Of a stretch of 64,000 nucleotides of DNA, positions 3,658 through 64,000 are shown piece by piece. The position numbers and the translations under genes were made by a program. The notes under the pieces were generated by a model that saw nothing but the letters and a program-made list of their open reading frames with translations, was not told the DNA's origin and made no database searches. Positions within the stretch are counted from its first letter, which is position 1, and the number at the start of each line of letters is the position of its first letter. The DNA is from Pyrinomonadaceae bacterium (GTDB taxonomy: Bacteria > Acidobacteriota > Blastocatellia > Pyrinomonadales > Pyrinomonadaceae): positions 197,182 through 261,181 of the forward strand of contig DASVPO010000009.1 of assembly GCA_036382855.1 (NCBI GenBank). The letters are read 5' to 3'.

Positions 3658-3661
3658 CAGC

Positions 3662-3767: not shown

Positions 3768-3773
3768 TTTATT

Positions 3774-4634: not shown

Positions 4635-4692
4635 ACGGTCAACGGTTGATAGACGCTGCATTAGCTCGCCGGTCGTCAAGCCGATTCATTAA

Positions 4693-6237
4693 GTGATGAA
4701 GATAGAGTTTCCAGAAAAGTTCAACATGTCGGACTACTTCCTCTATCACAATCTGGAGGAAGGGCGCGAAGGCAAAGTCTGTCTCTACTTTGAGGATCAG
4801 ACCTACACGTATGGCGAGACGGCGCGGTTAGCTAACAGGACGGGCGCTGCCCTCCGTGAGCTTGGATTAAGGCAGGAAGAGCGCGTGTTGATTGTGTTGC
4901 CGGACTGCCCTGAGTTTGTCTGGACGTGGTTTGGTGCGAGCCGCATCGGCGCTGTCATTACGATGGTCAACCCGCTGCTGCCCGCCGCCGATTACAAATA
5001 TTATCTTGAATACACGCGCGCTCGCATCGCCGTCATACATGAATCGCTGCTCGCGACGTTTGCGGAAGCCGCTGCTGACGCGCGTCATCTACGGCAGGTC
5101 TTAGTCGTCGGCGATGAGCACGGCGATTTTCTCTCGTTTCAGAATGTTGTTTACGCGATGCCGGAGAACCTGACGCCCGCCGAGACGCATCGCGACGATA
5201 TAGCCATCTGGCTTTTCACGTCCGGCTCGACGGGCCATCCTAAAGGTGCTGTCCACCTGCAACACGATTTGCCGTATAACACGGAAGTCTTCGCCAAGCG
5301 CACCATCGGCGTGCGCGAAGACGACGTGACAGTCTCCGTGCCGAAACTCTTTTTCGGTTATGCGACCGGCACAAACCTGCTCTTTCCGTTTGCAGTTGGC
5401 GGTGCGACCGCTCTTTTCAGTGAGAGGTCAACGCCGGAAAAGTTGTTCGAGGTAATAGAACGTTTTCGCCCGACGATTTTGACGACCGTGCCGACGATGA
5501 TTAATGCGATGCTCAATGCTGAAGGCGGCAGACAAAGAGACTTGTCCAGCTTGCGCTTCTGCTATTCTGCGGGCGAGGCGCTGCCCGTGGAGCTTTATAA
5601 GCGATGGGTGGAGACGTTCGGAGTTGAAATCTATGACGGTATCGGTTCGGCAGAGATGTTTCACATCTACATCACGAATCGCCCTAATGATGTGAAGCCG
5701 GGAAGTCTTGGGCGCATCGTCGAAGGCTATGAAGCGCGAATCGTTGACGCCGAGGGCGCGCAAGTTAGCACGGGCGAGATGGGAACTTTGCGCATCAAGG
5801 GCGATTCGGCGGCGCTCTGCTACTGGAACGCGCACGAGAAATCGAAAGAGACTTTCGCGGGCGATTGGTGTACGACCGGCGACCAGTTTCACGTTGATGC
5901 CGACGGTTACTACTGGTATCACGGTCGCACCGACGACATGCTGAAAGTCTCAGGGGTTTTTGTTGCGCCCGCCGAAATCGAGAATTGCCTGCTGCAACAT
6001 GAAGCCGTGCTCGAATGTGCCATCATCGGCTTCGACGCGGGCGATGGCCTTGTCAAGCCCAAAGCCTTTGTCGTCGCGCGCGACACTCACGCGGCGGACG
6101 ACGCGCTGGCCGAACAACTCAAAGACTTCGTTAAATCACGACTCGCGCTCTACAAGTATCCACGCCAAATCGAGTTCGTAACGTCTCTACCGAAAAACGA
6201 CCGCGGCAAGATTGACCGCAAGTTATTAAAACAGTGA
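4693..6237 (+). CDS. aryl-CoA ligase of the benzoate/2-aminobenzoate-CoA ligase family (AMP-dependent synthetase)
   Basis: AMP-binding signature FTSGSTGHPKGAVH, YGxTE block and C-terminal GKIDRKLL. Overall pattern typical of benzoate-CoA ligase family. Confidence 0.8.
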   Translation: MMKIEFPEKFNMSDYFLYHNLEEGREGKVCLYFEDQTYTYGETARLANRTGAALRELGLRQEERVLIVLPDCPEFVWTWFGASRIGAVITMVNPLLPAADYKYYLEYTRARIAVIHESLLATFAEAAADARHLRQVLVVGDEHGDFLSFQNVVYAMPENLTPAETHRDDIAIWLFTSGSTGHPKGAVHLQHDLPYNTEVFAKRTIGVREDDVTVSVPKLFFGYATGTNLLFPFAVGGATALFSERSTPEKLFEVIERFRPTILTTVPTMINAMLNAEGGRQRDLSSLRFCYSAGEALPVELYKRWVETFGVEIYDGIGSAEMFHIYITNRPNDVKPGSLGRIVEGYEARIVDAEGAQVSTGEMGTLRIKGDSAALCYWNAHEKSKETFAGDWCTTGDQFHVDADGYYWYHGRTDDMLKVSGVFVAPAEIENCLLQHEAVLECAIIGFDAGDGLVKPKAFVVARDTHAADDALAEQLKDFVKSRLALYKYPRQIEFVTSLPKNDRGKIDRKLLKQ

Positions 6238-6314
6238 CAAGTGATGAGTAATGAGTGATGCGTTAAAAACCTTGCTTTCTTTTACTCATCACTCATTACT
6301 CATCACTCATCACT
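6233..6314. repeat. heptamer-tandem hairpin element, family A (GTGATGA/GTAATGA units)
   Basis: Left arm AGTGACAAGTGATGAGTAATGAGTGATG (contains the ligase TGA stop). Loop CGTTAAAAACCTTGCTTTCTTT. Right arm TACTCATCACTCATTACTCATCACTCATCACT, ending 6 nt before the thioesterase ATG. Confidence 0.85.
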
Positions 6315-6320
6315 TCTCTT

Positions 6321-6734
6321 ATGCCTTTCTCGACACGCATCACAGTCCGCTTCGGTGATACAGACCCGGCCGGACTCGTCTATTATCCGAACCTCTTTCA
6401 TTATCTTCACATTGCGATGGAAGAGTTTTTCGCGGCGCGCTGCGGTATTAGCTATCACAAGCTGATGGCGGATGAGCGCATCGGTTTTCCGACCGTCAAT
6501 GCGCAGGCGGAATTTTTGCTGCCGCTGGTTTATGGAGACGAGGCCGTGGTGGAGGTATTGGGTTCAAACGTTGGCCGCAGCTCTGCGACGTTTGATTACA
6601 GCATTCGTCGCGTCAGTGATAATGCGCTGTGTGTGCGTGCGCGCCTCGTGCACGTGGCGATGAATCTGGACGAACGCCGCGCCGTCGCAATCTCCGACCG
6701 CTATCGCCGCGCCTTCATGGAAAGCGCAAGCTAA
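6321..6734 (+). CDS. acyl-CoA thioesterase, hot-dog fold (4HBT/YbgC-like)
   Basis: RFGDTDPAGLVYYPNLFHYLHIAMEEFF is the typical 4HBT N-terminal block. 137 aa. Confidence 0.7.
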   Translation: MPFSTRITVRFGDTDPAGLVYYPNLFHYLHIAMEEFFAARCGISYHKLMADERIGFPTVNAQAEFLLPLVYGDEAVVEVLGSNVGRSSATFDYSIRRVSDNALCVRARLVHVAMNLDERRAVAISDRYRRAFMESAS

Positions 6735-17454: not shown

Positions 17455-17616
17455 GCAGTCTTCAGGCCACTAGAACGTCCGGCCCTGATAAGGAAAGAGC
17501 CGGACACAGGCACTCAAACGTCTCACGCGGCGACGGCAATCACAAAGGAGCCGCCCGCCGCGCATTCTCATCAATGATTGAAAGCGAAGCGAACGGCTTT
17601 GTCAAGAAGTAAAAAA

Positions 17617-17682
17617 AGTGATGAGTAATGAGTTAAGAGCATCTGCTTTTACTCATCACTCATTACTCATCACTCATCACTT
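17617..17682. repeat. heptamer-tandem hairpin element, family A
   Basis: Left arm AGTGATGAGTAATGAGT, loop TAAGAGCATCTGCTTTT, right arm ACTCATCACTCATTACTCATCACTCATCACTT. Starts 5 nt downstream of the stop of gene 17687..19672. Preceded on the plus strand by an A7 tract, which is a U-tract for the minus-strand transcript. Confidence 0.85.
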
Positions 17683-17686
17683 GCTT

Positions 17687-19672
17687 TTAATTGATTGCCG
17701 ATGAGGTGAGTTTGCCGGTCGTGATGTCAACGAGCGGGTCTATCTTGTCGCTGAGGGCTGTGCGGCGCTGTTCTTTGTGGGCCGACTTGGCTGTGTACAT
17801 GGCCTGGTCGGCTGCAATCAGGAGTTGGTCAAGGGTTTCGCCGTCGAGGCCGTAGGTGGCCGCGCCGACGCTGATGCCGACGCGTGCGTGATGCTCTGCG
17901 CGAACGTGCAGGGAGAAATTCTTGATACTGTTTTCGATACGCTCGCGCAGTTCTTCGACCTGCTGTCCTTCGAGGTCTTGAACGATGGCGACAAACTCGT
18001 CGCCCGCGTAGCGCGCCAGAAAATCGTACTCACGCATTTGCGCTTGCAGCAGCCGCGCAATCTCGCGCAGCATCTTGTCGCCTATTTTGTGGCCGAAGGT
18101 ATCGTTGACCTGCTTGAAATCATCGAGGTCGAGCATGATGACCTGAAAGGGACAGTTCTTGCGGCGTGCGCGCGACGCCTCCTGCTCGAAGCGCAGGTAC
18201 ATGGAGCGCGCGTTGGGCAGGCCGGTCAGCGGGTCTGTCATCGCGTTGGATTCCGCCTCCGCGTGATGCATCGCGTTAAAGAGCGCGTCGGAAGCAAGAC
18301 GCGTGACGGTTTCGAGTAGCCGCAGGTGGTCGTCAGTGTATTCGGCCAACTGCATAGAGTAGATGGAGAGAGCGCCGAGCAGCCGTTCGTCTTTGACGAG
18401 GGGGAGAGAAACCATCGAGCGATAATGATTGTCGGCGGCCAATTCCACATCTGCGAAATCGAGCCGCGGGTCAATGCGTGTGATCGAGCGGCGGTTGGCG
18501 AGGGCAAAGCCTGTCACGCCTTCGCCCGGCGCGATGCAGCGATTAAGGAGCGCGTCCGTATTCTTTCCGGCAACGTGGGCGGCCGTCGCGTAGCCCTTCA
18601 ACTCGTCGTAGAGATAGACGGCGCAGGTTTCGAAAGGCACAACGTGGCCCACCTTGTTGACGAGAATCGAAACAGTGTCTTCGATGTCGAGCGAAGAGCC
18701 AAACGTGCGTGCAATCTCGTAGAGAGCATAGACTTCGCGGTGCGCGTTCTTAATCTGGTCGTAAGCCATCGCCGCTATCTGCTCTTTGCTGCGCGGAACA
18801 TCAGCGAGCTTTAAGGTAGATGGCCCATCATCGCTCGTGCGGCTCGGCTGCGGCTGCGGCTCAAGGCCGAGCGCGGCTATCTCTTTCTCAAAGCGCGGCA
18901 GGTGTTTGATAAAGAGTTCGACGACCTTCGGGTCGTAGTGTGTGCCGCTGCCGCGCAGGAGCAAAGCGATTGCTTCCTCGCGCGTCAGGCCGCGACGGAA
19001 GGGGCGGTCTTCGCGTACGGAGTCGAAGCAATCAACGACGGTGATGATGCGCGCGGTGAGCGGAATCTCTTCGCCCTTCAGGCCATCAGGGTAGCCGAGG
19101 CCGTTCCACTGCTCGTGATGATGCAGGACGATTGGCAGCACAGGGTATGGAAAATCAACGCGGCTCAGAATCTCAGCCCCGACGGTCGTGTGCACTTTCA
19201 TGCGCTCGAATTCCTGCGTGGTGAGGCGGCCGGGGTTGTTCAGGATGTGGTCCGGGACGGCGAGTTTGCCAACGTCGTGCAGGAGCGCACCGGCCTTGAG
19301 AGCTTCTATCTCTTCGTCTGGAAGACAGAAGACCTTGCCCATCCCGGCCGCGTAGATTTGCACGCGGCGGACGTGGCAATGCGTCGTCTGGTCTCTGGCA
19401 TCAATGGCCGTGGCTAGCGCCTCTACGGTTGCCAGATGAAGACGGCTCATCTCGGAAGCTTCGCGCGTTTTTTCCGTGACGCGCTCAAAGTGGATTTTGT
19501 AGGCGACGGCTGCTCCCGTGATGAGCGGCGCGATGAGCACAACGTAAAGAAAACCGAATTTCGAGACGACTTCGTACACGAGAGCCGCCGCACACAGGGC
19601 TGCGACGATAAGCATCACAGGCCGGTAGAGCTTAGCCACAAAGTTATACTCAGACCTCTCCAGTAGTTTCAT
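17687..19672 (-). CDS. membrane-anchored c-di-GMP turnover protein: TM, HD-GYP phosphodiesterase, GAF, GGDEF diguanylate cyclase
   Basis: Two N-terminal TM helices. HD-GYP signature HDVGK...HHHEQWNGLGYPDG. GAF region. GGDEF block RYAGDEFVAIV with DPLTGLPN. Confidence 0.85.
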   Translation of the reverse strand: MKLLERSEYNFVAKLYRPVMLIVAALCAAALVYEVVSKFGFLYVVLIAPLITGAAVAYKIHFERVTEKTREASEMSRLHLATVEALATAIDARDQTTHCHVRRVQIYAAGMGKVFCLPDEEIEALKAGALLHDVGKLAVPDHILNNPGRLTTQEFERMKVHTTVGAEILSRVDFPYPVLPIVLHHHEQWNGLGYPDGLKGEEIPLTARIITVVDCFDSVREDRPFRRGLTREEAIALLLRGSGTHYDPKVVELFIKHLPRFEKEIAALGLEPQPQPSRTSDDGPSTLKLADVPRSKEQIAAMAYDQIKNAHREVYALYEIARTFGSSLDIEDTVSILVNKVGHVVPFETCAVYLYDELKGYATAAHVAGKNTDALLNRCIAPGEGVTGFALANRRSITRIDPRLDFADVELAADNHYRSMVSLPLVKDERLLGALSIYSMQLAEYTDDHLRLLETVTRLASDALFNAMHHAEAESNAMTDPLTGLPNARSMYLRFEQEASRARRKNCPFQVIMLDLDDFKQVNDTFGHKIGDKMLREIARLLQAQMREYDFLARYAGDEFVAIVQDLEGQQVEELRERIENSIKNFSLHVRAEHHARVGISVGAATYGLDGETLDQLLIAADQAMYTAKSAHKEQRRTALSDKIDPLVDITTGKLTSSAIN

Positions 19673-33161: not shown

Positions 33162-33340
33162 GTCAGGTCTCTACGGCGCGAGTGTTGGCAAAAGGCGTCC
33201 TTGCGGGTATGATGACGCGCTCGTTTGCTCGCGCTCTCGTTTTTGTCGTGCTGCCTTTGGCCGTCGCCTTTTCCTTTGAGCCGTCGAAGCGAGCGCATCA
33301 CATTTGTAGCTCTATCAAACTTCCCCGGAGGAATCACCAC

Positions 33341-33982
33341 ATGAAAAAAGTCAAAGCCATCCTGGCAATCGTCCTCGCCAGCCAACTCCTGCTCGCCTGT
33401 AGCAAGGAGGCGACTAACAGCAACAGCAATAGCAACGGCAACAGCAACGCCAACTCGAATTCGAAGACGACCAACACAACGACCTCTACCAACACCAACA
33501 CGTCGAAACCGGCCAACACCAGCGCTGACGCGCCCGCTAAACAGACTGCGACCGCGCCGTCCGGCGCAAACATCTACACGCACGCCGAAGGTGGCATACA
33601 GTTTGAAGTGCCCGCCGGATGGAAGGCCGAGCCAAACGGCGAGCAGATGACGCTCTCAACTCAGGATAGTTCGCTCAGCATCGTTCTCTGGGTTCCAGCC
33701 GAAGATAATTTCGACGAGGCGGTTAACGAGCTTGATAAGGAACTGGGCAAGACGATTACTAACATCAAGCCGGGCGGCGAGCCGCGAGAGACGACCGTCG
33801 GCGGCATGCCAACCTTCAGCCAGTCAGGCACGGGCGTCGTCGAAGGCAACCAGATTCAGTGGGCCGTTGACATCATCAAGGCCAAGAAGCCCGTCATCGT
33901 GCTCACCTTCGCCGCACCCGGCATCTGGGAAAAGCATCAGGGCGACTATCAAAAATTCGCGAGCAGCATCAAGCCCGCCTAA
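33341..33982 (+). CDS. lipoprotein with Asn/Ser/Thr low-complexity linker
   Basis: GGAGGA RBS 9 nt upstream of ATG 33341. MKKVKAILAIVLASQLLLAC lipobox. TNSNSNSNGNSNANSNSKTTNTTTSTNTNTS linker encoded by AACAGC-type repeats. The track ORF start at 33182 is upstream and out of context. Confidence 0.6.
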   Translation: MKKVKAILAIVLASQLLLACSKEATNSNSNSNGNSNANSNSKTTNTTTSTNTNTSKPANTSADAPAKQTATAPSGANIYTHAEGGIQFEVPAGWKAEPNGEQMTLSTQDSSLSIVLWVPAEDNFDEAVNELDKELGKTITNIKPGGEPRETTVGGMPTFSQSGTGVVEGNQIQWAVDIIKAKKPVIVLTFAAPGIWEKHQGDYQKFASSIKPA

Positions 33983-34103: not shown

Positions 34104-35876
34104 TTACTTCTTGAAGTAGGACTTGGCGGCCATCTTCGCAAGCTTCCACATCTTGCTCCACTCTATCTGGCCTTCGCGGTCGCGGCCCATGAATTTATCA
34201 ACGATGAGCTTGCGAAACTGCCGTCCCTCGCGCTTGAGCATAAACTCCTTGGCGTAGGGCTTCGCCGTGTCGAAGAAGCTGAACTCAGGGTCTGTCACGA
34301 TGCCTATGCCTTCGAGCGTCATCAGAGCGCGCATGACGTACGTGAAATTCGATGGCAGTCGGAACGGGTATTCGTACATCACTTCGGCCAGCTCGTAAGT
34401 CAACTCTTTGAAGTTGACTTCACCGAGCTTCAGATTGATGTAGTGCTCGAAGAGTCCTTCGACGACGGGACGCACCGTTTCAGGGTCAACGCCCGGCTTG
34501 AGGAAATTGAGATTGATGAGGTCTTGCGCAAGGCCGTGCACGTCGCGCTCGATGACGTGGAAGAAGGCGTCAATCATCTGCGATTGCAAGCGCTCCGTAA
34601 TCTTGCCCGTCATCCCGAAATCGAAGAAGGCGAGCCGCCCGTTGTCCATCACGAGCAGATTGCCCGGATGCGGGTCTGCGTGAAAGAAGCCGTCTTCCAG
34701 AAGCTGCTTCAAATAGGTGCGGACGAGCAGACGGTTGACCTTGACGGGCGAGATGCGTCGCGCCTTCAGGGCTTCGATGTCAACGACCTTTGTGCCGCGT
34801 ATGAACTCCATCGTCAGCACGTGGCGACTAGTGTGTGACCAGTAGATGACGGGAACACGTATGGCGCGCCACTCCTTGAAGTTTTCGCGGAAGCGGTCCG
34901 CGTTGCGCCCTTCCTGCACGTAGTCCATCTCTTCGAGGACGGTCACGCTAAACTCGTGCAGCATGCCTTCCCAGTCTGCGTTCTCGTTGGCCTGCGGAAA
35001 GTGGCGATTAACGAGGCGGACCAACTTGTGCAGGATGCTGATGTCGAAGCTGATAAGCTCGGACAGATTTGGCCGCTGCACTTTGACGGCCACCTCCTCG
35101 CCCGAATGCAGGCGAGCGCGATAGACCTGGCCCAGCGAAGCGGCGGCAATCGGCTCGGCATCAATCTCAGCGTAAGCCTCGCGGAGGCTGCGGCCCAACT
35201 CAGCTTCGATGCGCGCGTAAGCTTCCGTGGTCGGAAAGGGCGGAACCTGATCCTGCAAGACCGCAAGCTGCTTGATGTAAGGCAGCGGCAGCAAATCGCC
35301 GCGCGTGCCGAGCGCCTGCCCTATCTTGATAAACGTTGGGCCAAGTTTGATTAAATTATCCTTCAGCCACACGGCCTGCTCTTCAAGCCGCGCCTCTTTC
35401 TTCACACTGCCCTGCGCGCCACGGAAAACGATGAAACGCACGATGCGAATCAAGCGGTCAACTGCGCGGCGGTCAACATCGCGACTCCAATGCTGGAAGA
35501 GCGCACGACGCCCACGCCCGCGCGCTTCCTCTCGCCTGCGCTCAGCCATGCGCGCGTTGAAGGCGGCGCGGATGTCGTAGCTATCCAGATAAAGGTAGAA
35601 CGAGAGCAGGCCGAGCACGCGAGCGATGTTACAGACGCGCAGCCACCCGCGCAGCCCGTGCCCCTTCATACGCTCATCCTCTTTAATACTCTCGTTGCCC
35701 GCGCCCTTGAGCTTTAACTTTTCCTTCACGCCGCCGCCCGCGCCAGCGCTACGCACAGGAGCAGGCACGAGCGCCGGAGCGGCAACTTTCGCATTGCCGT
35801 TTCCGTTCACCCTCTGTTGCCCGCCGCCGGTCGCCGCGCGCAAAGCCAGAGCCTCTTTGTTTTCAGGAGCCGCCAT
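34104..35876 (-). CDS. ABC1/UbiB-family atypical protein kinase
   Basis: LGPTFIKIGQALGTRGDLLP, AAASLGQVYRARL, AVKVQRP and FFHADPHPGNLLV blocks. ~115-aa Gly/Ala-rich N-terminal extension. Confidence 0.85.
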   Translation of the reverse strand: MAAPENKEALALRAATGGGQQRVNGNGNAKVAAPALVPAPVRSAGAGGGVKEKLKLKGAGNESIKEDERMKGHGLRGWLRVCNIARVLGLLSFYLYLDSYDIRAAFNARMAERRREEARGRGRRALFQHWSRDVDRRAVDRLIRIVRFIVFRGAQGSVKKEARLEEQAVWLKDNLIKLGPTFIKIGQALGTRGDLLPLPYIKQLAVLQDQVPPFPTTEAYARIEAELGRSLREAYAEIDAEPIAAASLGQVYRARLHSGEEVAVKVQRPNLSELISFDISILHKLVRLVNRHFPQANENADWEGMLHEFSVTVLEEMDYVQEGRNADRFRENFKEWRAIRVPVIYWSHTSRHVLTMEFIRGTKVVDIEALKARRISPVKVNRLLVRTYLKQLLEDGFFHADPHPGNLLVMDNGRLAFFDFGMTGKITERLQSQMIDAFFHVIERDVHGLAQDLINLNFLKPGVDPETVRPVVEGLFEHYINLKLGEVNFKELTYELAEVMYEYPFRLPSNFTYVMRALMTLEGIGIVTDPEFSFFDTAKPYAKEFMLKREGRQFRKLIVDKFMGRDREGQIEWSKMWKLAKMAAKSYFKK

Positions 35877-35925
35877 CTCGTCTATGATAATAACTCAAAG
35901 CTGTCGCAATAACATTCGCGCCGGA

Positions 35926-36004
35926 TGTTCAAAATCTAAAGTCCAACATCCAAAGTCGAAACAATGGCCGTTGACTTTAGAGGTTGGACTTTTAAACTTC
36001 AAAC
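35926..36004. repeat. heptamer-tandem hairpin element, family C (AAAGTCC-type units)
   Basis: Left arm ATGTTCAAAATCTAAAGTCCAACATCCAAAGTCGAAAC. Loop AATGGCC. Right arm GTTGACTTTAGAGGTTGGACTTTTAAACTTCAAAC (imperfect). Right arm contains the ribF stop codon. Confidence 0.65.
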
Positions 36005-36952
36005 TATCGTTAACATCCTGCGCACGCCTCCGCGCTCGAAATAGCTTTCAGCACGACGACGGTCAAACTCAATCTGCTTTTTCAACTCCAAGACCGAAGC
36101 GAACTTGCGTTCCTCGCGCAGGCGATGCAGAAAACGCACGCGCACCACGTCGCCGTATAAATTGCCCGCCCAGTTCAGCACGTATGTCTCAACAGTCGGT
36201 TCAGCATCCTCTTCAAAGGTCGGGCGCGTGCCGACGTTGGTCACGCTCCTGCGCCATGCGCCTTCAATCAGTGTTGCCGTCACGTAAACACCGCTGCGAG
36301 GTATGACGCGGTTCTGCGGGTGCAGGTTGGCCGTCGGGAAACCTATCGTGCGGCCTCTCTCTTCACCATGCACGACGCGCCCCTCGACCCCGTAAGGTCG
36401 CCCCAGCATCCGTCGCGCCAGATTCACGCGGCCTTCCGCCAGCAGCCTGCGAATCGTGCTCGAACTAATGCGCTGCCCGCGCAGCCGCACCTCCGCCACT
36501 TCTTCCGCACGAAAGCCAAGCCGCTCGCTCACCTCTTTCAACAACTCTATGTTGCCCCGTCGCCCGCGCCCGAAAGCAAAGCCACGCCCAAGGTAAACTT
36601 CCCTCGCCTGAAGGCGTTCGCCCACCACATCGCGCAGAAAATCCTCTGCTTCAATCTCCGCGAACGCACGGTTGAAGCGAATGACGATGACCTGCTCGAT
36701 GCCGAGCACGCCGAAGGCTTCTATCTTCTGGTCGAAAGTTTGCAAGAGCGGCGGGGCGCTTTCCGGGTGCAGCACGGCGCGCGGGTGCGGGTCAAAGGTA
36801 ATCACTGTCGGTACAGCGCCGACCGCGTGTGCACGCTCCAAGACCGTCCGCATCACCAACTGATGACCTAAGTGCAGCCCGTCAAACACGCCCAGCGTCA
36901 ACACGGTCGGCCGCGCAATCCGCGCATTCTCAATGCCATGAAAAAGGCGCAT
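35999..36952 (-). CDS. ribF: bifunctional riboflavin kinase / FAD synthetase
   Basis: MRLFHGIENARIARPTVLTLGVFDGLHLGHQ matches the RibF N-terminus. GFPTANL riboflavin kinase block. The track ORF start at 37012 translates the hairpin repeat ([14 protein letters not shown]). True start 36952. Confidence 0.9.
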   Translation of the reverse strand: MRLFHGIENARIARPTVLTLGVFDGLHLGHQLVMRTVLERAHAVGAVPTVITFDPHPRAVLHPESAPPLLQTFDQKIEAFGVLGIEQVIVIRFNRAFAEIEAEDFLRDVVGERLQAREVYLGRGFAFGRGRRGNIELLKEVSERLGFRAEEVAEVRLRGQRISSSTIRRLLAEGRVNLARRMLGRPYGVEGRVVHGEERGRTIGFPTANLHPQNRVIPRSGVYVTATLIEGAWRRSVTNVGTRPTFEEDAEPTVETYVLNWAGNLYGDVVRVRFLHRLREERKFASVLELKKQIEFDRRRAESYFERGGVRRMLTIV

Positions 36953-36957
36953 AAAAA

Positions 36958-37034
36958 AGTGATGAGTGATGAGTGATGAGTGATGAGTGAGAAGCTGTTT
37001 TCTGCTCATCACTCATTACTCATCACTCATCACT
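36958..37034. repeat. heptamer-tandem hairpin element, family A
   Basis: Left arm (AGTGATG)x4-like AGTGATGAGTGATGAGTGATGAGTGATGAGTGAG. Loop AAGCTGTTTTCTGC. Right arm TCATCACTCATTACTCATCACTCATCACTG. Contains the stop codon of the MBL-fold gene and ends 6 nt upstream of the ribF ATG. U-tract CTTTTTTAT on the transcribed strand. Confidence 0.85.
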
Positions 37035-37790
37035 GATTTCCAATCCGTCGTAAGCAAATTCAACGCCTGCGGGCAGGCGGTGGCTGTCGCGCGCGTGTTT
37101 GACATCGTGTGCGATGTGCGTCAGATAGGCGCGGCGCGGTTTGAGTTCAGAGATATATTCGAGAGCGCGTTCGAGCCAGAGGTGCGTCGGGTGCTTTGTG
37201 AAGCGCAGGCAGTCGAGCACGAGCACGTCTAGGTCGCGCAGGCCGTCGAGCGTCCGCTGTGGTATTTCGCTCAAGTCCGTCGCGTAGGCGAAATCGTTAA
37301 AGCGATAGGCGATGACGGGCAGGCGACCGTGTATGACTTCGAGCGGTGTGACCTGCAAATCCCTGCCGATGCAGAAGGGTGCGCCGTTGACGACCGTATG
37401 GGGCACAATCTGCGGCAGCCCGCCGCCGACGTAAACCGGCTCGAAGACATACTGGAAAATACGCCGCAGGTCTTTCCAGGCGCGCTCGTTGGCGTAGATT
37501 CCGAGCGCGCCATGACGGAAGTTGAGCGGGCGAATATCGTCTAGGCCGAAGACGTGGTCTGCGTGGCAATGCGTAATCAGCACGGCATCGAGCCACTTGA
37601 TTTTTTGCCTGAGCGCCTGCTGGCGAAAGTCTGAAGAGGTATCAACGAGAACAATCTGCCCGCCGTGCTCAATCAGAATGGAGACGCGCAGGCGCTTATC
37701 GCGCGCATCGTCCGACACGCACGTCTCGCACTCGCAGCCGATGGAGGGTACGCCCGTCGAAGTGCCTGTGCCGAGGAAAGTCAATTTCAT
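37023..37790 (-). CDS. MBL-fold metallo-hydrolase (PhnP/RNase Z-like)
   Basis: HxHxDH motif LITHCHADHVFG. 255 aa. Confidence 0.75.
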   Translation of the reverse strand: MKLTFLGTGTSTGVPSIGCECETCVSDDARDKRLRVSILIEHGGQIVLVDTSSDFRQQALRQKIKWLDAVLITHCHADHVFGLDDIRPLNFRHGALGIYANERAWKDLRRIFQYVFEPVYVGGGLPQIVPHTVVNGAPFCIGRDLQVTPLEVIHGRLPVIAYRFNDFAYATDLSEIPQRTLDGLRDLDVLVLDCLRFTKHPTHLWLERALEYISELKPRRAYLTHIAHDVKHARDSHRLPAGVEFAYDGLEISDE

Positions 37791-37791
37791 G

Positions 37792-37882
37792 TCAGTTTTC
37801 AGTTTTCAGTTAACAGCTTTCAGTTAACAGAAGTAAGACGAGGGAGCCTTTATCTGAAAACTGAAAGCCGCAAACTGAAAAC
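37792..37882. repeat. heptamer-tandem hairpin element, family B (CAGTTTT-type units)
   Basis: Left arm TCAGTTTTCAGTTTTCAGTTAACAGCTTTCAGTTAACAG. Right arm CTGAAAACTGAAAGCCGCAAACTGAAAACT. Ends 1-2 nt upstream of the MBL-gene ATG. A GGAGGAAAG Shine-Dalgarno-like motif lies on the far side of the hairpin. Confidence 0.7.
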
Positions 37883-37885
37883 TAT

Positions 37886-38527
37886 TTACTTTCCTCCGAG
37901 AATGTCGCTGCCCGTGAAGACGCCGGGCCGCTTCTGTGTCGAAGCGCGTGTGAGCGAGACAAATTGCATGCGGAGGTCCGAGAGCAAGCCTGTGAAGATT
38001 TGCTGCTCGCGCGTAGAGAGATTGCCGTTCGTCTTTTCCTGCAACATGCCGAGCACGTCAATCCAGTGTTTGCCGAGCGCAAGGTCAACGCCGCGCTCGC
38101 CCGTCACAGGATGCTCCATCATGCCGAGCGCAGCAGCAGCGTTTGAGGCGATAGACATCAGGAAGTTGACAAAACTCGCGGGGTCGTTTGCTCCCGGAAT
38201 GTCGCCCTCATCATATGCTTCGCCGGACAAGTCATCTTCTTCACCGATGACAGATGCGCTACTGGTTGAGTCGGCCGTGGCTCTTCTCGCAGCATCGGAT
38301 GTTGTGGCTTGTTCGGTCGCGGAAGAAGATAATGACGGGGCGGCTGATTCTGCTGGCGTTGCGGATGAAGCGGCCTCAGTCGTTGTCGTGGTAGCGGCCT
38401 CTGCGGTCGCGGAGGCTTGCGGCGCTGGCTTTTCTTCCTGCTGTTGCTGCGCCACTTCGCGCGGCGTCCCGTCAGGATTAAAAAGGCGACGGTCTGTGAC
38501 TTTGAAGCCCGATTGTTCTTCGCTCAT
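37886..38527 (-). CDS. hypothetical protein (DUF1844-like), acidic low-complexity centre
   Basis: MSEEQSGFKVTDRRLFNPDGTPRE N-terminus. Ala/Thr/Ser/Glu-rich low-complexity segment. Conserved C-terminal block FVNFLMSIASNAAAALGMMEHPVTGERGVDLALGKHWIDVLGML. Confidence 0.5.
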   Translation of the reverse strand: MSEEQSGFKVTDRRLFNPDGTPREVAQQQQEEKPAPQASATAEAATTTTTEAASSATPAESAAPSLSSSATEQATTSDAARRATADSTSSASVIGEEDDLSGEAYDEGDIPGANDPASFVNFLMSIASNAAAALGMMEHPVTGERGVDLALGKHWIDVLGMLQEKTNGNLSTREQQIFTGLLSDLRMQFVSLTRASTQKRPGVFTGSDILGGK

Positions 38528-38789
38528 CGTATTGCTCTACGGGAACGCGGCCCTGAAAGCACACTCTTCGGTGCGAATGCACGTTCCCTTCTTTCATCTC
38601 AAGATTGTGTTGAACGGTTTTTGATGGTAGCACCTCCCTGCGCACCCTCGCAAGATTAGTCCTAAAAGTCTGAAGGCCGGAGCCCGGAGGCTGAAGACAC
38701 AGTAAGCCCGCTTGGAAGATGCGGCCTGAAGCTTTAGACTTCCGTGCGCTGGCTTCAGACCACAAACTTTGAACATTGGACGATAAATC

Positions 38790-39617
38790 ATGCCCGCTAC
38801 ATTTTCCGACCTCGTTGCGCTAATGGCGCGCCTGCGTTCGCCTGACGGTTGCCCCTGGGATCGCGAACAAAATTACGAGACGCTTGCGCCGATGCTGCTT
38901 GAAGAAGCTTACGAGGCTTTCGAGGCAGTCGAAGCGGCGCGCGAAGGGCGGCCACTGGAGTTGCGCGACGAACTTGGCGACCTGCTTTTTCAAATCGTCT
39001 TCTACGCGCAGGTCGCCAGCGAGCGCGCGGAGTTTACGATTGACGACGTGACCGAAGCGATTCATGCCAAGATGGTGCGGCGTCATCCACACGTCTTCGC
39101 GAGCGCGCAGGCGGAAGACACGGCCGCCGTGCTGCGCAACTGGGAAGCCATCAAGGCAGAGGAAAAACGGCTCGCCGGAAACGAGACCGAAGAAAAGGAC
39201 GAATCGTTGCTTGACGGCGTTTCAACGAGAGCGCCCGCGCTGATGGAAGCTCATCAATTGAGCACGAAGGCTGCGCGCGTCGGCTTCGACTGGCAGCACA
39301 TAGACGACATCTTCGCCAAGCTACAGGAGGAGGTTGGCGAACTGCGCGCAGCCATCAGCCAGCAGTCCGCGACGAATGAAGCCGAAAAGACGTCGCAGGT
39401 GCGCGGAGAGTTGGGCGACCTGCTGTTTGCCGTCACCAATATCGCGCGTCACCTGAAAATCGAACCCGAAACGGCGCTTAAAGCCACCAACCGCAAATTC
39501 CGTCGCCGCTTCCGTTTCATCGAAAGCAGCCTGAAGGCGCGCGGGCGCTCGATGGAAGCCGCGACGCTCGATGAAATGGAAGCGCTCTGGCAGGAAGCTA
39601 AAGGAAGTGATGAGTGA
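38790..39617 (+). CDS. mazG: nucleoside triphosphate pyrophosphohydrolase MazG
   Basis: [29 protein letters not shown] and duplicated EELGDLLF blocks. Confidence 0.85.
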
Positions 39618-39778
39618 TGAGTAATGAGTGATGAGTGAGAGAAAAAAAATGATAAGTAAGTAGAGATGGACGGCAGTTGAAAAGTATCGGATGACAAGCG
39701 GAAACCTGTAGTGCTATCTTTTTCAATGTCGGAAGTGAGGGGTTTTACTCATCACTCATTACTCATCACTCATCACTG
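39606..39778. repeat. family A heptamer hairpin arms separated by a ~100-bp insert
   Basis: Left arm AGTGATGAGTGATGAGTAATGAGTGATGAGTGAGAG (overlaps the mazG stop). Right arm TACTCATCACTCATTACTCATCACTCATCACTG 104 bp away. Followed by GTTTTTTTTGGGAGG and the ATG of the next gene. Confidence 0.7.
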
Positions 39779-39797
39779 TTTTTTTTGGGAGGATGCA

Positions 39798-40496
39798 ATG
39801 ATTCAGTTCGTTAATAATTATGAAGACCTTTCAACGGACAGGGGCTACCAGTTTAAGTTCCACTGCGACAAATGCGGCAACGGCTACATGTCGCGCTTTC
39901 AGGCTTCGACCATCGGGACGGCCGGTTCGCTGCTGCGCGCGGCCGGAAGCTTGTTCGGCGGCTGGGCCGGTTCGGCAGGTGATTCCGCTTACGAAGTGCA
40001 GCGAGCCGTCGGCGGCAAGGCCCACGACAGCGCACTCGAAAAGGCCGTGCAAGAAGGCAAGGAACATTTTCATCAATGCTCGCGCTGCGGGCGCTGGGTC
40101 TGCCCCGAAGTCTGCTGGAACGCGCAGGCAGGGCAATGCGAAGAATGTGCGCCCGACTTTCAGGAAGAACTAGCATCCTCGCACGCGCAGGCCAAAGCCG
40201 CAGCCGCCAACGAACAACTCCGCGAGAAAGCTCGACAAACAGATTACGTCTCGAAGATTGACATGAGCGCCGACGCTCAAGTGAGAGCGCCGCAGACGCA
40301 AGCGCCGCAGGCAGCGGCGGCAGCAGCGGCCGACTGTTCCTCGTGCGGCGCACAGGTGGGCAAAGCCAAGTTCTGTCCCGAATGTGGAACGCCGACGAAG
40401 CCGCCGCGCGTGGCCTGCCGTGGCTGCGGCCATGAGCCTGAGAATTCGACCAAGTTCTGTCCAGAATGTGGCGCGAAGATGCCGCTCATCGGTTAA
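39798..40496 (+). CDS. zinc-ribbon protein with four CxxC pairs
   Basis: CDKCGNGY, CSRCGRWVCPEVC...CEEC, CSSCG...CPECG, CRGCG...CPECG. GGGAGG RBS 7 nt upstream. The track ORF start at 39711 translates the repeat ([11 protein letters not shown]). Confidence 0.6.
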   Translation: MIQFVNNYEDLSTDRGYQFKFHCDKCGNGYMSRFQASTIGTAGSLLRAAGSLFGGWAGSAGDSAYEVQRAVGGKAHDSALEKAVQEGKEHFHQCSRCGRWVCPEVCWNAQAGQCEECAPDFQEELASSHAQAKAAAANEQLREKARQTDYVSKIDMSADAQVRAPQTQAPQAAAAAAADCSSCGAQVGKAKFCPECGTPTKPPRVACRGCGHEPENSTKFCPECGAKMPLIG

Positions 40497-48328: not shown

Positions 48329-50212
48329 TTAAACTTTTCCAGGTTCGTCCATAAACTCCGAGGGCTCTTCGCCCGTCGGACTCTGGACTCTGGACTTTGG
48401 ACTTTGAACTTCGACTATCTTCAGCCTCAACTCTTCCAACTGCTTTGCGTCAACCTCGCCCGGCGCGTCAATCATCAAATCCGCTGCGGACGCCGTTTTC
48501 GGGAAAGCCATCAAGTCGCGTATGTTCTCGATGCCTGTGAGGGCCATCAGGAGGCGTTCGATGCCGGACGCGATGCCGCCGTGCGGCGGCGTGCCGTATT
48601 CGAGCGCGTCAAGGAAGAAACCGAAACGCGCGCGCGCCTTCTCCTGCGTTAGTCCCAGAGCCTTGAAGACGAGACCCTGCACCTCTCTCTGGTGAATACG
48701 AATCGAGCCGCCCGCTGCTTCCACTCCGTTAACGACCGTATCATAAGCCTTGGCCCGCAGTTGGCCCAACAGAGCCGTCTCGCCATCTTCAACCGCCCGC
48801 TTCAGGAGCGGCAAATCTTCGTCGAGCGGCGACGTGAACGGATGATGCATCGCATAATAACGCCCATCTTCTTCGTTAAACTCGAACATCGGAAACTCAG
48901 TCACCCACAGCGGCATGTAAACATCCTGCGGAATCAGCTTTCCGCGCCGCGCGATTTCAACGCGCAACGCGCCGAGGCTCGCCGCCACGACCTTCGCTTT
49001 GCCCGCAACAATCAACACCGCATCATTCTTGCCAGCTCCGGCTTCATCAGCCAGCCGCGTCACAACATCATGGCCCAGCGGCTTCAGCAGCGATGACGAT
49101 AGCTCGTCCGAGAGCTTAATCCACGCCAGAGCAGTTGCGCCGTAACGCTTGGCGTATTCCTGCAATTCGTCCAGAGCTTTTCTTGACAGCGAAGCGCCGC
49201 CCTGAACGACGATGCCCTTCACTTCGCCGCCCGCCGAGAGCGCGGAGGCGAAAGGCGCGAACGTCGTTCCCTCAAGCGCGGGCGACAAATCGCGCAACTC
49301 CATCCCGAAACGCAGGTCTGGTTTATCCGAGCCGTAACGCCGCATCGCTTCCTCATACGTCAGGCGCGGAAACGGCAAAGGTAATTCGATGCCCGCCAGA
49401 CGGAAGACGCGCGCAAACAGTCCCTCTATTAACGTGTAAACCTGTTCGGGCGAAGCGAAGCTCAATTCAACGTCCAACTGCGTAAACTCCGGCTGTCGGT
49501 CGGCCCTCAAATCTTCATCGCGAAAGCAGCGCGCAATCTGGTAATACTTATCAAGGCCCGCAATCATGCAGAGTTGCTTAAAGAGTTGCGGCGATTGCGG
49601 CAGCGCGAAGAATTTTCCGGGCTGTATGCGCGAGGGCACTATGTAATCGCGCGCACCTTCGGGCGTTGACTTGATCAGGATAGGCGTCTCGATTTCCGTG
49701 AAGCCCTGCTCATCCATGTAGCGACGGATCTCTGCGACGACGCGCGCGCGCAGCCGCAGGTTCGTCTGCAATTGCGGACGACGCAAATCCAGATAGCGAT
49801 ACTTCAAACGCAAATCTTCGCTCGCTAAGGCATCCGACGAGACCATCTCAAGCTGGAAGGGCAGCGTGCGCGCGTCGTTGAGAATCAACAAGCGGCTGGC
49901 GCTCACCTCAACGTCGCCCGTCGCTATCTTCGGATTGCGCTGCCCCTCTTCGCGCAGCACGACCTCGCCCGTCACGGCGATAACGTATTCGCCGCGCACG
50001 TCCTTCGCCTTAGCGTGCGCCTCTGGCGCAACATCTGCATTGAAGACGACCTGCGTAATGCCGTCGCGGTCGCGCAAATCGAAGAAGGTCAGCGGGCCGA
50101 AATCGCGACGGCGAGCGACCCAGCCCATCAGCGTGACAGTCTCTCCGACGGCACTCGTCGTAAGCGCTCCGCACGAATGCGTGCGCTGCAAATTTCCAAG
50201 GTTATCCAACAT
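48329..50212 (-). CDS. aspS: aspartyl-tRNA synthetase with heptamer-repeat-encoded C-terminal tail
   Basis: Class II motifs (FFDLRDRDG, FRDEDLRADRQPEFTQLDVE, GGSIRIH). C-terminal ~25 aa extension VEVQSPKSRVQSPTGEEP encoded by the tandem heptamers at 48378-48415. Confidence 0.92.
   Translation of the reverse strand: MLDNLGNLQRTHSCGALTTSAVGETVTLMGWVARRRDFGPLTFFDLRDRDGITQVVFNADVAPEAHAKAKDVRGEYVIAVTGEVVLREEGQRNPKIATGDVEVSASRLLILNDARTLPFQLEMVSSDALASEDLRLKYRYLDLRRPQLQTNLRLRARVVAEIRRYMDEQGFTEIETPILIKSTPEGARDYIVPSRIQPGKFFALPQSPQLFKQLCMIAGLDKYYQIARCFRDEDLRADRQPEFTQLDVELSFASPEQVYTLIEGLFARVFRLAGIELPLPFPRLTYEEAMRRYGSDKPDLRFGMELRDLSPALEGTTFAPFASALSAGGEVKGIVVQGGASLSRKALDELQEYAKRYGATALAWIKLSDELSSSLLKPLGHDVVTRLADEAGAGKNDAVLIVAGKAKVVAASLGALRVEIARRGKLIPQDVYMPLWVTEFPMFEFNEEDGRYYAMHHPFTSPLDEDLPLLKRAVEDGETALLGQLRAKAYDTVVNGVEAAGGSIRIHQREVQGLVFKALGLTQEKARARFGFFLDALEYGTPPHGGIASGIERLLMALTGIENIRDLMAFPKTASAADLMIDAPGEVDAKQLEELRLKIVEVQSPKSRVQSPTGEEPSEFMDEPGKV
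48378..48415. repeat. tandem heptamer array (GGACTCT x2, GGACTTT x2, GAACTTC) inside the 3' end of aspS
   Basis: GGACTCTGGACTCTGGACTTTGGACTTTGAACTTCGACT read directly. No inverted partner. In-frame in aspS, giving VQSPKSRVQSP. Confidence 0.8.
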
Positions 50213-52221: not shown

Positions 52222-52227
52222 AACTCA

Positions 52228-52315
52228 AGTGATGAGTAATGAGTGATGAGTAATGAGTGATGAGCAGAAAGCTGTTCGTCTTTCACTCATCACTCATTAC
52301 TCATCACTCATCACT
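52228..52315. repeat. heptamer-tandem hairpin element, family A
   Basis: Left arm AGTGATGAGTAATGAGTGATGAGTAATGAGTGATGAG. Loop CAGAAAGCTGTTCGTCTT. Right arm TCACTCATCACTCATTACTCATCACTCATCACT. Begins 7 nt upstream of the hisS ATG and contains the stop of the gamma-CA gene. Confidence 0.85.
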
Positions 52316-52816
52316 TTTATAAGCCCTCGTATACTCTATGTAGTTTTTCCAGAACACTTCGAGGCCAGCAACCTCTTCATCGTTGAGCGGGCGCTTGATG
52401 CGCGCGGGCGCGCCGATGACGAGCGAGCGCGGCGGAATCTGCGTGCCGGGTGCGACGAGCGCTCCGGCGGCAACGAGCGACTGCGCGCCGACGCGCACTC
52501 CGTCCATCACGATTGAACCCATTCCAATCAGGCATCCTCGCTCGATATGGCAGCCGTGCAGCGTCGCGTTGTGCCCGACCGTCACTTCGTCTTCGAGGAT
52601 GGTGGCGTGCGTGCCGTTGGTGACGTGTATGACCGTACCGTCCTGTATGTTTGTACGGTTGCCGATGCGTATGTAGAAACAATCGCCGCGCACCGTCGCG
52701 TTAAACCAGACGGAAGCCTCTTCGCCAATCGAGACATCGCCGATAATCTGCGCGCTCTCTTCGATAAAGGCTGTCGGATGAATCTGCGGGTGCTTGCCCT
52801 GAAACGGTCTAATCAT
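52304..52816 (-). CDS. gamma-class carbonic anhydrase family protein (hexapeptide repeat, YrdA/PaaY-like)
   Basis: MIRPFQGKHPQIHPTAFIEESAQIIGDVSIG and left-handed beta-helix hexapeptide repeats. Confidence 0.8.
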   Translation of the reverse strand: MIRPFQGKHPQIHPTAFIEESAQIIGDVSIGEEASVWFNATVRGDCFYIRIGNRTNIQDGTVIHVTNGTHATILEDEVTVGHNATLHGCHIERGCLIGMGSIVMDGVRVGAQSLVAAGALVAPGTQIPPRSLVIGAPARIKRPLNDEEVAGLEVFWKNYIEYTRAYKSDE

Positions 52817-63135: not shown

Positions 63136-63867
63136 ATGGAGCGCCGGACGACCAGTTGGTATAGTCACAATCTGGGAATGGAGATGCCGCTTGTGGCTTA
63201 CGGGCATGCGGGCTATCCGTTGTTGATGTTTCCCACTGCTGCCGCAGATTATCTGGAGTATGAGCGGTTTCATCTCATTGACGCAATCAAACATTTAATC
63301 GAAGCCGGGCGCGTGCGTGCCTTTTCGATTAACAGCGTCAACCGTTATAGCCTGCTGAACGAGCAGGCTCCGCCAAACGTGAAAGCAGAATTGCTGACGC
63401 GTTATGACCGCTACGTGACGGACGAAGTGTTGCCCTTGATTCGCAACGAGGTCGGAGACGGCGCGCGTCCTATCACGACGGGCGCGAGCCTCGGCGCATT
63501 CCTTTCGGCCAACGCTTACTTTCGTCACCCCGATTTGCTGCGCGGCGTTATCGCGATGAGCGGCAGCTACGACGTGCGCTCTTATCTAAAAGGCTATTCG
63601 GACGACAACGTTTATTTCAACAACCCTGCCGACTACCTGCCAAACCTGAACGACGATTACTACCTTCCGCTGCTTCGTCGTGCCGATGCAATCTTCATCC
63701 TCTCAGGACAGGGAGCCTACGAAGCGCCGGAGCGCAGCAGAAAATTGTCGGAGATTTTGACTGCCAGAGGAATCCCGCACACGCTCGATTTGTGGGGACA
63801 CGACGTAAACCACGACTGGCCCTGGTGGCGCAAGATGCTGCCTTACTATTTAGAGAAGCTGTTTTAA
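63136..63867 (+). CDS. esterase family protein (alpha/beta hydrolase, PF00756-like)
   Basis: GASLGAFLSANAYFRHPD nucleophile-elbow context. 243 aa. Confidence 0.7.
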   Translation: MERRTTSWYSHNLGMEMPLVAYGHAGYPLLMFPTAAADYLEYERFHLIDAIKHLIEAGRVRAFSINSVNRYSLLNEQAPPNVKAELLTRYDRYVTDEVLPLIRNEVGDGARPITTGASLGAFLSANAYFRHPDLLRGVIAMSGSYDVRSYLKGYSDDNVYFNNPADYLPNLNDDYYLPLLRRADAIFILSGQGAYEAPERSRKLSEILTARGIPHTLDLWGHDVNHDWPWWRKMLPYYLEKLF

Positions 63868-63947
63868 ATGATGAACGCGGAACGATGAACGATAAAGTAC
63901 TAAGCAGTTGTTTGTCATTCATCGTTCATCGTTCCGCGTTCATCATT
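63867..63947. repeat. heptamer-tandem hairpin element, family D (GATGAAC/GCGGAAC units), perfect 27-bp stem
   Basis: AATGATGAACGCGGAACGATGAACGAT ... ATCGTTCATCGTTCCGCGTTCATCATT. Begins at the esterase stop codon. Confidence 0.8.
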
Positions 63948-64000
63948 TCGTTACGGTTCGTCGTTGCCCTTCTTCCCTTTTTTCTTAGCGGGTTCGACTT

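Follow-up and report, generated by a model that had tools for sequence, protein, structure and literature searches.

The window analysed here is a stretch of 64,000 nucleotides (nt) from contig DASVPO010000009.1 of a Pyrinomonadaceae acidobacterium (class Blastocatellia; assembly GCA_036382855.1), and our subject is a set of hairpins within it whose arms are built from tandem 7-nt units. Three of these, B, C and D, had been described in an earlier note made from the sequence alone, and that description was confirmed at all three loci. With the neighbouring genes named by Pfam hits, the minus strand carries, in order, a DUF1844 gene (37886-38527, TAA stop at 37886-37888), hairpin B, a metallo-beta-lactamase-fold (MBL) gene (37023-37790, ATG at 37790-37788), a hairpin of a further family, A, the gene ribF (35999-36952, ATG at 36952-36950, stop at 35999-36001), hairpin C and an ABC1/UbiB-type kinase gene (34104-35876, ATG at 35876). 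Hairpin D lies at 63866-63948, and its context was read from the source contig beyond the window edge.

Hairpin B (37792-37883 on the minus strand, which is the mRNA strand) uses CAGTTTT/CAGTTAA units, and its paired arms are 37794-37827 and 37850-37883. On the mRNA, the 5' arm (37850-37883) is of the CAGTTTT type (AGTTTTC AGTTTGC GGCTTTC AGTTTTC), the 22-nt loop (37828-37849) shows partial self-pairing, and the 3' arm (37792-37827) reads CTGTTAA CTGAAAG CTGTTAA CTGAAAA CTGAAAA CTGA, in which TAACTGA-like units are present. The element begins 2 nt past the DUF1844 TAA stop and ends 1-3 nt short of the MBL ATG, ahead of which there is no Shine-Dalgarno (SD) sequence. Hairpin C (35918-36023, minus strand) is built from AAAGTCC/AACATCC units, with heptamer arms at about 35973-36004 (5' on the mRNA) and about 35927-35957 (3') and a 12-bp outer stem (35918-35929 / 36012-36023). 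It occupies a co-directional gap, overlapping the 3' end and stop codon of ribF (35999-36001) and ending 41 nt from the kinase ATG. In hairpin D, arms of GATGAAC units with the variant GCGGAAC (63866-63903 and 63911-63948) are 89% complementary, and the element takes up the whole 83-nt gap between the convergent stops of an esterase gene (63865-63867, plus strand) and a PBP1A-like gene (63951-63953, minus strand).

All three elements are predicted to fold far better than chance. RNA folding gave -55.7 kcal/mol for B (z -8.4), -46.0 kcal/mol for C (z -7.8) and -50.3 kcal/mol for D (z -11.4), values matched by 0 of 200 shuffles. Autocorrelation at lag 7 across the six arms was 0.57-0.73 (p<=0.001 by shuffling in every arm), versus 0.08-0.46 at lags 5, 6, 8 and 9, and the lag-14 signal was strong too. 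The program TRF likewise returned period-7 rows, and the arrays contain at least three head-to-tail 7-nt units, above chance, as in heptanucleotide simple-sequence repeats (SSRs). Periodicity is weakest in C, which TRF describes better as a 14-nt period of two alternating heptamers, AAAGTCC and AACATCC. The hairpin architecture with 7-nt units that the earlier note had claimed for B, C and D is thus borne out by both folding and arm periodicity.

The generality of this signal was assessed in the window together with 80 related loci (81 genomes, 1.28 Mb; L-numbers below are locus labels). These loci were retrieved with the MBL-fold protein at 79-96% amino-acid identity and all come from Acidobacteriota of the family Pyrinomonadaceae. 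Period-7 tracts in this sample form 163 inverted pairs versus 6 direct ones; another 212 tracts remain single, an unquantified share of them with a degenerate partner. A de novo scan that did not assume periodicity (arms of at least 20 nt, at least 80% complementary) identified 333 inverted repeats, and in a 20-sequence subset it found 98, versus none in shuffles of the same sequences. Over lags up to 16, the arms of these 333 repeats gave two autocorrelation peaks, of 0.534 (lag 7) and 0.514 (lag 14), while the other lags stayed within 0.23-0.29. Of the 333 arms, 120 have a lag-7 identity of 70% or more, a level reached by 0-8 arms at lags 5, 6, 8 and 9. The earlier note had made its proposal dependent on 7-nt periodicity turning up in inverted repeats beyond the three loci, and the signal is indeed present across the loci sampled.

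The arms have a median length of 34-36 nt (10th-90th percentile, 25-42 nt) and usually hold 4-6 units; there are no long arrays. With only 1 of the 163 hairpins inside a gene, the elements are mainly intergenic and spread over many loci, as expected for the heptanucleotide SSR class. Outside the two sites flanking the MBL gene, 33 hairpins lie in co-directional, 13 in divergent and 7 in convergent gaps, with 1 inside a gene, where the background is 658 co-directional, 132 divergent and 144 convergent gaps. Two further candidate features of the class were rejected: a loop motif AAAAGC...GCTTTT common to all families is carried by only 30 of 163 loops, and a systematically longer 3' arm, which would act as an unpaired leader, amounts to a median of +2 nt only, an effect driven by two sites.

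The central comparison is between orthologous gaps. Of 81 genomes, 70 have one heptamer tract or more in the gap that corresponds to B, 60 of them two or more and hence a paired hairpin, and the MBL-ribF gap is occupied in 66 of 81. At these fixed positions the unit itself is rewritten, with 27 different unit necklaces (that is, units compared irrespective of starting point) at the B gap and 23 at the MBL-ribF gap, examples from the two sites being CAGTTTT, CAGTAGT, GGTCAGT, GTCTGGA, AAAGTCC, GTCCCAA, GTTTCAA, AAATCGT and AAATGGT. The two arms of a hairpin change together: the arm-arm unit distance is 0.53 for cognate versus 2.96 for non-cognate arms (p 5e-33) at one of the two sites and 0.65 versus 2.62 (p 4e-22) at the other. 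In line with the earlier note, B, C and D are not copies of one mobile sequence, and the architecture is regenerated independently of its sequence.

Units diverge at least as fast as silent sites. Unit consensus divergence is 0.27-0.30 per position where the third-codon divergence of the flanking genes is 0.1-0.2, and beyond that it levels off close to what unrelated units show. Genome pairs whose MBL proteins are at least 96% identical have units that range from identical to different at 3 or more of 7 positions. Between L025 and L028, two loci with identical MBL protein and 94% DNA identity, each unit has changed at 1-2 of its 7 positions, in both arms and at both sites. L034, L074 and L027 can be aligned over flanks and loop, with arms of GATGAAC in one locus and of GATGAGG/GGGATGA in the others. 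The architecture is thus inherited and the sequence is not, and change is concerted over units and arms. The alphabets had been called unrelated in the earlier note; this does not hold, as they form a mutational network of single-base steps from which a limited set recurs over loci, genomes and phyla.

By median values across genomes, the stem at the MBL-ribF site begins 12 nt ahead of the last stop-codon base and finishes 5 nt short of the ATG, and the array itself gives the in-frame stop codon, as heptamers containing TGA stop all three frames within three units. At the B gap, the flanking coding sequences GAGGAAAGT and ACTTTCCTC are complementary over 13 nt. As a co-evolved outer stem of B this pair was rejected, since cognate and non-cognate pairings showed no difference (74 loci, p=0.2); the complementarity follows from conserved coding for GGK-stop and MKLTFLG. 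The B gap is not always filled in the same way. In L015 it contains zero sequence, and the two genes overlap as ATGA with no hairpin and no footprint. The B-gap orthologues of L047 and L055 hold a G+C-rich palindrome (GCAAGCG...CGCTTGC type), some 100 nt ahead of the MBL start codon (near 10000), and no heptamer hairpin, and L048 has a short GC hairpin there. A further observation concerns the GCGGAxx variant, which recurs within GATGAxx-type arrays that differ elsewhere in the unit, both in D and downstream of the MBL gene in L009, L012, L015, L022 and L034. It appears to be a dimorphism common to several alphabets, for which whole-unit slippage alone offers no obvious explanation.

The arms also display a marked polarity. 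The 5' arms, with 61 distinct units, are rich in G and poor in C (G 115 versus C 57); AGT occurs in 24 units versus ACT in 1, AG in 38 versus CT in 8 and GT in 39 versus AC in 8. Since the elements are palindromes, this polarity holds on both strands, so that the G-rich, C-poor arm comes first for a transcript arriving on either side. Accordingly, G-type arrays come after stop codons and G-poor arrays ahead of start codons in co-directional, convergent and divergent settings alike. Viral and metagenome loci, examined as independent sets, repeat the polarity (AGT 7 versus 0 and 12 versus 0). In weighted counts, 5' arms exceed 3' arms in ATG (38 versus 8), stop codons (92 versus 49) and SD-like motifs (64 versus 17), and selection against spurious initiation beside real starts is a plausible partial cause of the polarity.

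The window as a whole contains 14 period-7 tracts, versus 0.1 expected in shuffles, and several alphabets coexist in this one genome, namely A, B, C and D plus an AGTGACG variant (window plus L125). The family A hairpin in the MBL-ribF gap (36952-37040, minus strand, AGTGATG/CATCACT) has a 5' arm that reaches 9 nt into the MBL open reading frame (ORF) and provides its TGA stop, and a TTTTTT run lies between its 3' arm and the ribF ATG. Other family A hairpins lie between co-directional plus-strand genes (6232-6319) and between co-directional minus-strand genes (17611-17687, and 52226-52319 at -60 kcal/mol). Another, at 39603-39781, has a 102-nt loop and a predicted fold of -78 kcal/mol (z -12.4); it comes after the mazG stop, and downstream of it lie T8, GGGAGG and, at 39799, an ATG. 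This arrangement resembles a terminator followed by an ordinary SD-led start, and an Rfam scan of its region was negative.

In five family A copies (6280, 17647, 37002, 39743 and 52280), a 31-nt CATCACT-type arm with a CATTACT variant in its second unit is identical, the partner arms and loops differ, and the conserved arm lies on the right of the plus strand whatever the gene strand. That this reflects one fixed chromosomal orientation was rejected as anecdotal, because the sixth copy, in L125, is without the pattern. This further hairpin lies 7 kb past the window (L125 17681-17764), between two other convergent genes. With at least six copies in 74 kb, family A behaves as a dispersed, homogenised repeat within this genome.

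The window also holds a degenerate hairpin of an AGTGACG/AATGACG sub-alphabet (3667-3765) and a single array of the family C alphabet (AAAGTCC; 48373-48415, minus strand) inside the last ~30 codons of the ORF at 48329-50212. The AAAGTCC unit has no stop in any frame, and the ORF therefore reads through the array; its protein has apparently acquired a repeat-encoded C-terminal tail. A period-6/12/18 repeat (AACAGC/AACGGC) at 33416-33454 in the ORF at 33182-33982 is presumably coding and unrelated to the heptamer elements.

Degenerate family-C-like arms at 38655-38785 flank a conserved promoter-like core (AGTCTAAAGC ... TTCCAAG) in the divergent DUF1844/mazG gap. The corresponding arms are found in L010 (9064-9199) and in L004, L009, L014, L020, L039, L050 and L062 (~9000-9260), and the heptamer arms are intact in several of these relatives. 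On the mazG strand the core reads as a sigma-70-like promoter (TTGGAG, 17 nt, TAGACT in L010), from which the L010 mazG mRNA would carry a single-stranded (AAAACTG)4 leader directly before the ATG, as for the TAACTGA repeats discussed below.

Related elements extend well beyond these genomes. A scan of viral contigs with (CAGTTTT)3 returned 44 stretches, and several viral contigs of 63-68% GC proved dense in heptamer arrays and hairpins of many alphabets. In one of them (L087, IMGVR_UViG_3300045947_000060), positions 850-6650 encode a cluster of tailed-phage structural proteins, among them a head-tail connector and proteins for head completion and tail completion, and six of the gene junctions examined consist of a stop codon, a heptamer hairpin of ~80 nt (four alphabets in this one contig), a conserved GGAGCGCAGCGACC and an ATG. 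L093, L108, L111 and L121 are of similar density, at 1.5-2.5 tracts per kb. Two further viral contigs of 67% GC (L114 and L097) hold 5-6 (CAGTTTT)n arrays with CAGTCGT variants, unpaired and on one strand, and thus present the family B alphabet in direct-repeat form. A cultured relative of the hairpin-rich phage was searched for, and none was found. The 31-nt family A arm occurs in at least 120 metagenome stretches; 80 of these loci comprised 39 hairpins, on contigs of 50-72% GC, and 20 long direct arrays. Direct arrays of tens of units that mix ACTCATC and ACTCATT, the two-variant alphabet of family A, are found on contigs of 35-38% GC (L130, L133, L136, L143, L156, L161, L167 and L204), which are probably cyanobacterial, judging by GC content and sample type only.

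We then asked whether the stems bear the mark of RNA or of DNA. In 135 hairpins from co-directional gaps, the transcribed strand folds at -47.30 kcal/mol and the opposite strand at -47.27 kcal/mol, with 315 G.U pairs versus 314; that B and C in the window fold better on the transcribed strand is not general among them. An asymmetry of G.U over A.C as proof of an RNA-level stem was therefore rejected. The equal counts on both strands fit complementarity kept at the DNA level, that is, by a process of the repair or replication type. Of the two generating processes that the earlier note had put forward, the repair-type one is thus compatible with the data, whereas nothing points to an enzyme for dedicated heptamer templating, for which no test was made. 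Nor do the hairpins resemble intrinsic terminators with a G+C-rich stem, a small loop and a U-tract, as a consensus scan called none. T is enriched in the 10 nt after the 3' arm, as a trend only, with a fraction of 0.43 for convergent hairpins and 0.36 on the transcribed strand of co-directional ones, versus a genome average of 0.21; a T-run is absent after B and C, and T6-T8 follows some family A copies. Rfam models over 35500-40000 gave no hit at gathering score, and the only sub-threshold hits were miRNA-precursor models, which amount to generic long hairpins.

Taken together, we tentatively read B, C and D as self-renewing heptamer microsatellite palindromes, renewed in the DNA by slippage and by correction templated on the hairpin and retained as gene punctuation, a reading to which we give slightly less than even odds. 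Replication slippage in 7-nt steps, as in the proposed polymerase-footprint idea, would create each arm and keep it homogeneous, intrastrand template switching or short-patch conversion templated by the hairpin would keep the arms complementary, and occasional conversion between loci would homogenise copies of the same alphabet, as in family A. The elements would be transcribed with their neighbours, and modelled hairpins of -45 to -60 kcal/mol that fill stop-to-start or stop-to-stop gaps would serve as punctuation. Between convergent genes, D could form a bidirectional 3' end or terminator-like structure. B, and less tightly C, might hide the SD-less initiation region of the downstream gene until a ribosome terminating upstream unzips the 5' arm and exposes the start, a form of translational coupling, and the long duplex is possibly a processing site of the RNase III type. 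It seems unlikely that a conserved process, replisome-intrinsic or enzymatic, rewrites 7-nt palindromes at fixed gaps for use by Acidobacteria and phages as general punctuation, with the G-rich arm placed after the stop and the G-poor arm serving as an SD-independent leader.

Several observations weigh against renewal with retention as punctuation. The C-site orthologue is occupied in only 18 of 71 loci. Loops are not generally better conserved than arms, as aggregate alignments gave 0.54 for loops and 0.71 for arms, and the expected pattern is seen in L034, L074 and L027 only. A clear excess of 7-nt indels was not seen in pairwise alignments, in which repetitive arms align noisily; the slippage and template-switch steps therefore rest on inference and published proposals. 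The equal G.U counts give no positive sign of selection on an RNA stem, although an RNA role would still be compatible with them, since selection could hardly see a single mismatch within a stem of 35 bp. Furthermore, 13 of 53 hairpins outside the two MBL sites lie in divergent promoter regions, where the two arms are probably on different transcripts. Finally, start, stop and SD content was rejected as the full cause of the polarity, as it leaves the 24:1 ratio of AGT to ACT unexplained.

Alternatively, the elements could be self-perpetuating junk, a by-product of slippage and palindrome correction in unconstrained intergenic DNA with no role in expression. A unit that evolves at or above the silent-site rate, the lack of G.U strand asymmetry and the sparse occupancy of the C site all fit such a view, as do arrays that enter the ends of ORFs, which then stop at the first in-frame stop of the array, and the absence of a regulatory effect of the Xanthomonas repeats (Rehm et al., PMC4692102). 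Junk would hardly be expected, however, to persist in 70 and 66 of 81 orthologous gaps over saturated silent divergence, to keep a narrow range of arm lengths free of long arrays, unlike the long direct arrays of the low-GC contigs, or to maintain a polarity tied to gene ends in every orientation. Most junctions of the phage structural cluster also carry a hairpin, and streamlined phage genomes rarely keep junk, so that a purely passive origin appears rather unlikely. Non-autonomous mobile palindromes, similar to REPINs (hairpin-forming pairs of repetitive extragenic palindromes, REPs) or miniature inverted-repeat transposable elements, would provide one family per alphabet, mobilised in trans by a REP-associated tyrosine transposase or another transposase, with the orthologous gaps as insertion hot spots. 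This would account for the copies of family A and the five identical 31-nt arms with their CATTACT variant, for the same alphabets over loci, genomes, contigs of 35-72% GC and phage contigs, and for the use of all intergenic classes. It sits poorly with a gap that is filled in almost all genomes by units differing in graded single-base steps between relatives, and with L034, L074 and L027, where orthologous loops and flanks around different arms indicate rewriting in place and not a new insertion. Copies of family A share one identical arm only and differ in loop and left arm. The arms are not REP-type palindromes and lack a conserved GTAG, an unsystematic search noticed no target-site duplications at B, C and D, and no transposase turned up, although no search for one was made. 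On balance we regard mobility as quite unlikely.

Two further proposals can be weighed. The arrays might be landing pads for a single-strand-binding protein with a footprint of ~7 nt, of the cold-shock-domain or S1-type oligonucleotide-binding fold, and such a protein, bound to the first-transcribed G/U-rich arm in competition with closure of the hairpin, could thereby tune termination or translation. Bacterial cold-shock proteins (Csp) have a heptanucleotide footprint, the 7-nt unit is constant over all alphabets and phyla, every transcript starts with the same arm type by virtue of the polarity, and the L010 mazG leader, which would be single-stranded before the ATG and downstream of its promoter-like core, resembles the TAACTGA repeats. 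A unit sequence that is essentially free, with 61 necklaces and change at the silent rate, argues instead against sequence-specific recognition; no binding protein was identified, and the same arrays lie between convergent genes with no start codon following. Both the binding itself and the tuning it would permit are, in our judgement, very unlikely. Alternatively, a dedicated heptamer-writing enzyme (a reverse transcriptase, a telomerase-like enzyme or a primase-polymerase) might add 7-nt units at breaks or nicks, with fill-in or joining giving the palindrome. The fixed unit length with free sequence, the single alphabet shared by both arms and the polarity, in which the G/T-rich strand runs 5' to 3' towards the centre as if two G-strand extensions had been joined head to head, would suit such an enzyme. 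Dozens of alphabets related by graded single-base changes, together with mixed arrays, argue against a fixed template, and the inner element stays constant as the units change in L034, L074 and L027. The phenomenon moreover spans distant phyla and phages, and no candidate enzyme turned up, none having been searched for. We therefore consider a heptamer-writing enzyme extremely improbable.

Renewal by slippage and hairpin-templated correction, with retention at gene boundaries, bears on a long-standing question, as the over-representation of heptamers in bacteria was noted in 1990 and 2007, and their cause and function have no accepted answer. The Pyrinomonadaceae provide an unusually clean natural experiment, with hundreds of orthologous hairpins in which the architecture is kept and the sequence turns over at a neutral rate, together with a polarity rule relative to stop and start codons that is common to Xanthomonas, Nostoc and the phage contigs. 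Why the unit is 7 nt, and whether such elements are junk or punctuation, thereby become testable. In practical terms, the elements supply stop codons and sometimes C-terminal residues and may hide start regions, which matters to gene callers and operon predictions in Acidobacteriota.

The closest known relatives of these hairpins are the heptamer repeats of Xanthomonas and Nostoc. Xanthomonas genomes carry ~185 GGGAATC arrays, mostly of four units and overwhelmingly intergenic, with 70-75 array pairs per genome on opposite strands in convergent orientation and with stem-loop potential; the same genes flank them in two species, their sequence and length vary, their function is unknown and no regulatory effect was reported (Rehm et al. 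2015, PMC4692102). The Nostoc repeat is GGGGA(C/T)T (PMC4692102). Convergent inverted pairs are common to both systems and to the B/C/D class, as is a G-rich strand downstream of the ORF on the coding strand. The Xanthomonas and Nostoc units contain a G-tract of at least three and hence G-quadruplex potential, whereas CAGTTTT, AAAGTCC and GATGAAC have one or two isolated Gs. Each of those genera uses a single alphabet, compared with at least 61 here, most without G-quadruplex potential. Unlike in Xanthomonas, nearly all arrays are paired into hairpins here, and divergent regions, which are repeat-depleted in Xanthomonas, are not so in this acidobacterial host.

Hairpin B alone also resembles the TAACTGA direct repeats of marine Beggiatoaceae, Cyanobacteria and Bacteroidetes (MacGregor 2015, PMC4679880), forward arrays of 2-6 units directly upstream of SD-less start codons for which binding of Csp, S1 and CsrA has been proposed (PMC4679880). 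Its 3' arm, CTGTTAACTGAAAGCTGTTAACTGAAAACTGAAAACTGAC-ATG, consists of units that are TAACTGA or one base off, with TTAACTGA twice and AAACTGA units 1-3 nt before the ATG and no SD sequence, features that are lacking in C and D. The TAACTGA repeats are direct and of a single alphabet, with one 'indirect repeat' in the BOGUAY genome, whereas B has a complementary 5' arm and a predicted fold of -55.7 kcal/mol. Among the long SSRs of bacteria, 7 nt is the unit length found in excess, and slippage linked to a polymerase footprint of 7 nt is the suggested cause (Mrazek 2007, as cited in PMC4679880 and PMC4692102). The cyanobacterial short tandemly repeated repetitive (STRR) heptanucleotide repeats (Mazel 1990, as cited in PMC4692102 and PMC4679880) include three heptamer alphabets in Calothrix. 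Such repeats share with the present elements an intergenic location and several tandem heptamers per genome, but they form long direct arrays, where we find short paired arms of matched length.

The hairpins further share with REPs, with bacterial interspersed mosaic elements and with REPINs an intergenic, hairpin-forming, multi-copy character and a presence in co-directional and convergent gaps. REPs have species-specific sequences at conserved positions, a sign of concerted evolution, and protect mRNA 3' ends. A REP is a 20-35-nt imperfect palindrome with GTAG; the arms described here are tandem heptamers without internal dyad or any motif common to the alphabets, and many alphabets coexist per genome, unlike in REPs and REPINs. 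In the early mRNA of phage T7, intercistronic hairpins are cleaved by RNase III, and hairpins that sequester ribosome-binding sites enforce translational coupling. The junctions of L087 and the host operons similarly place a long stem between a stop codon and the next ribosome-binding site, a likeness of working principle only, known here from sequence. No description of these elements in Acidobacteria was found in the literature. The convergent paired-heptamer architecture is not new, having been reported in Xanthomonas (PMC4692102). As far as we could find, what is new is its many-alphabet and nearly always paired form in Acidobacteria and phage contigs, its turnover at a neutral rate at fixed sites, and the general polarity rule.

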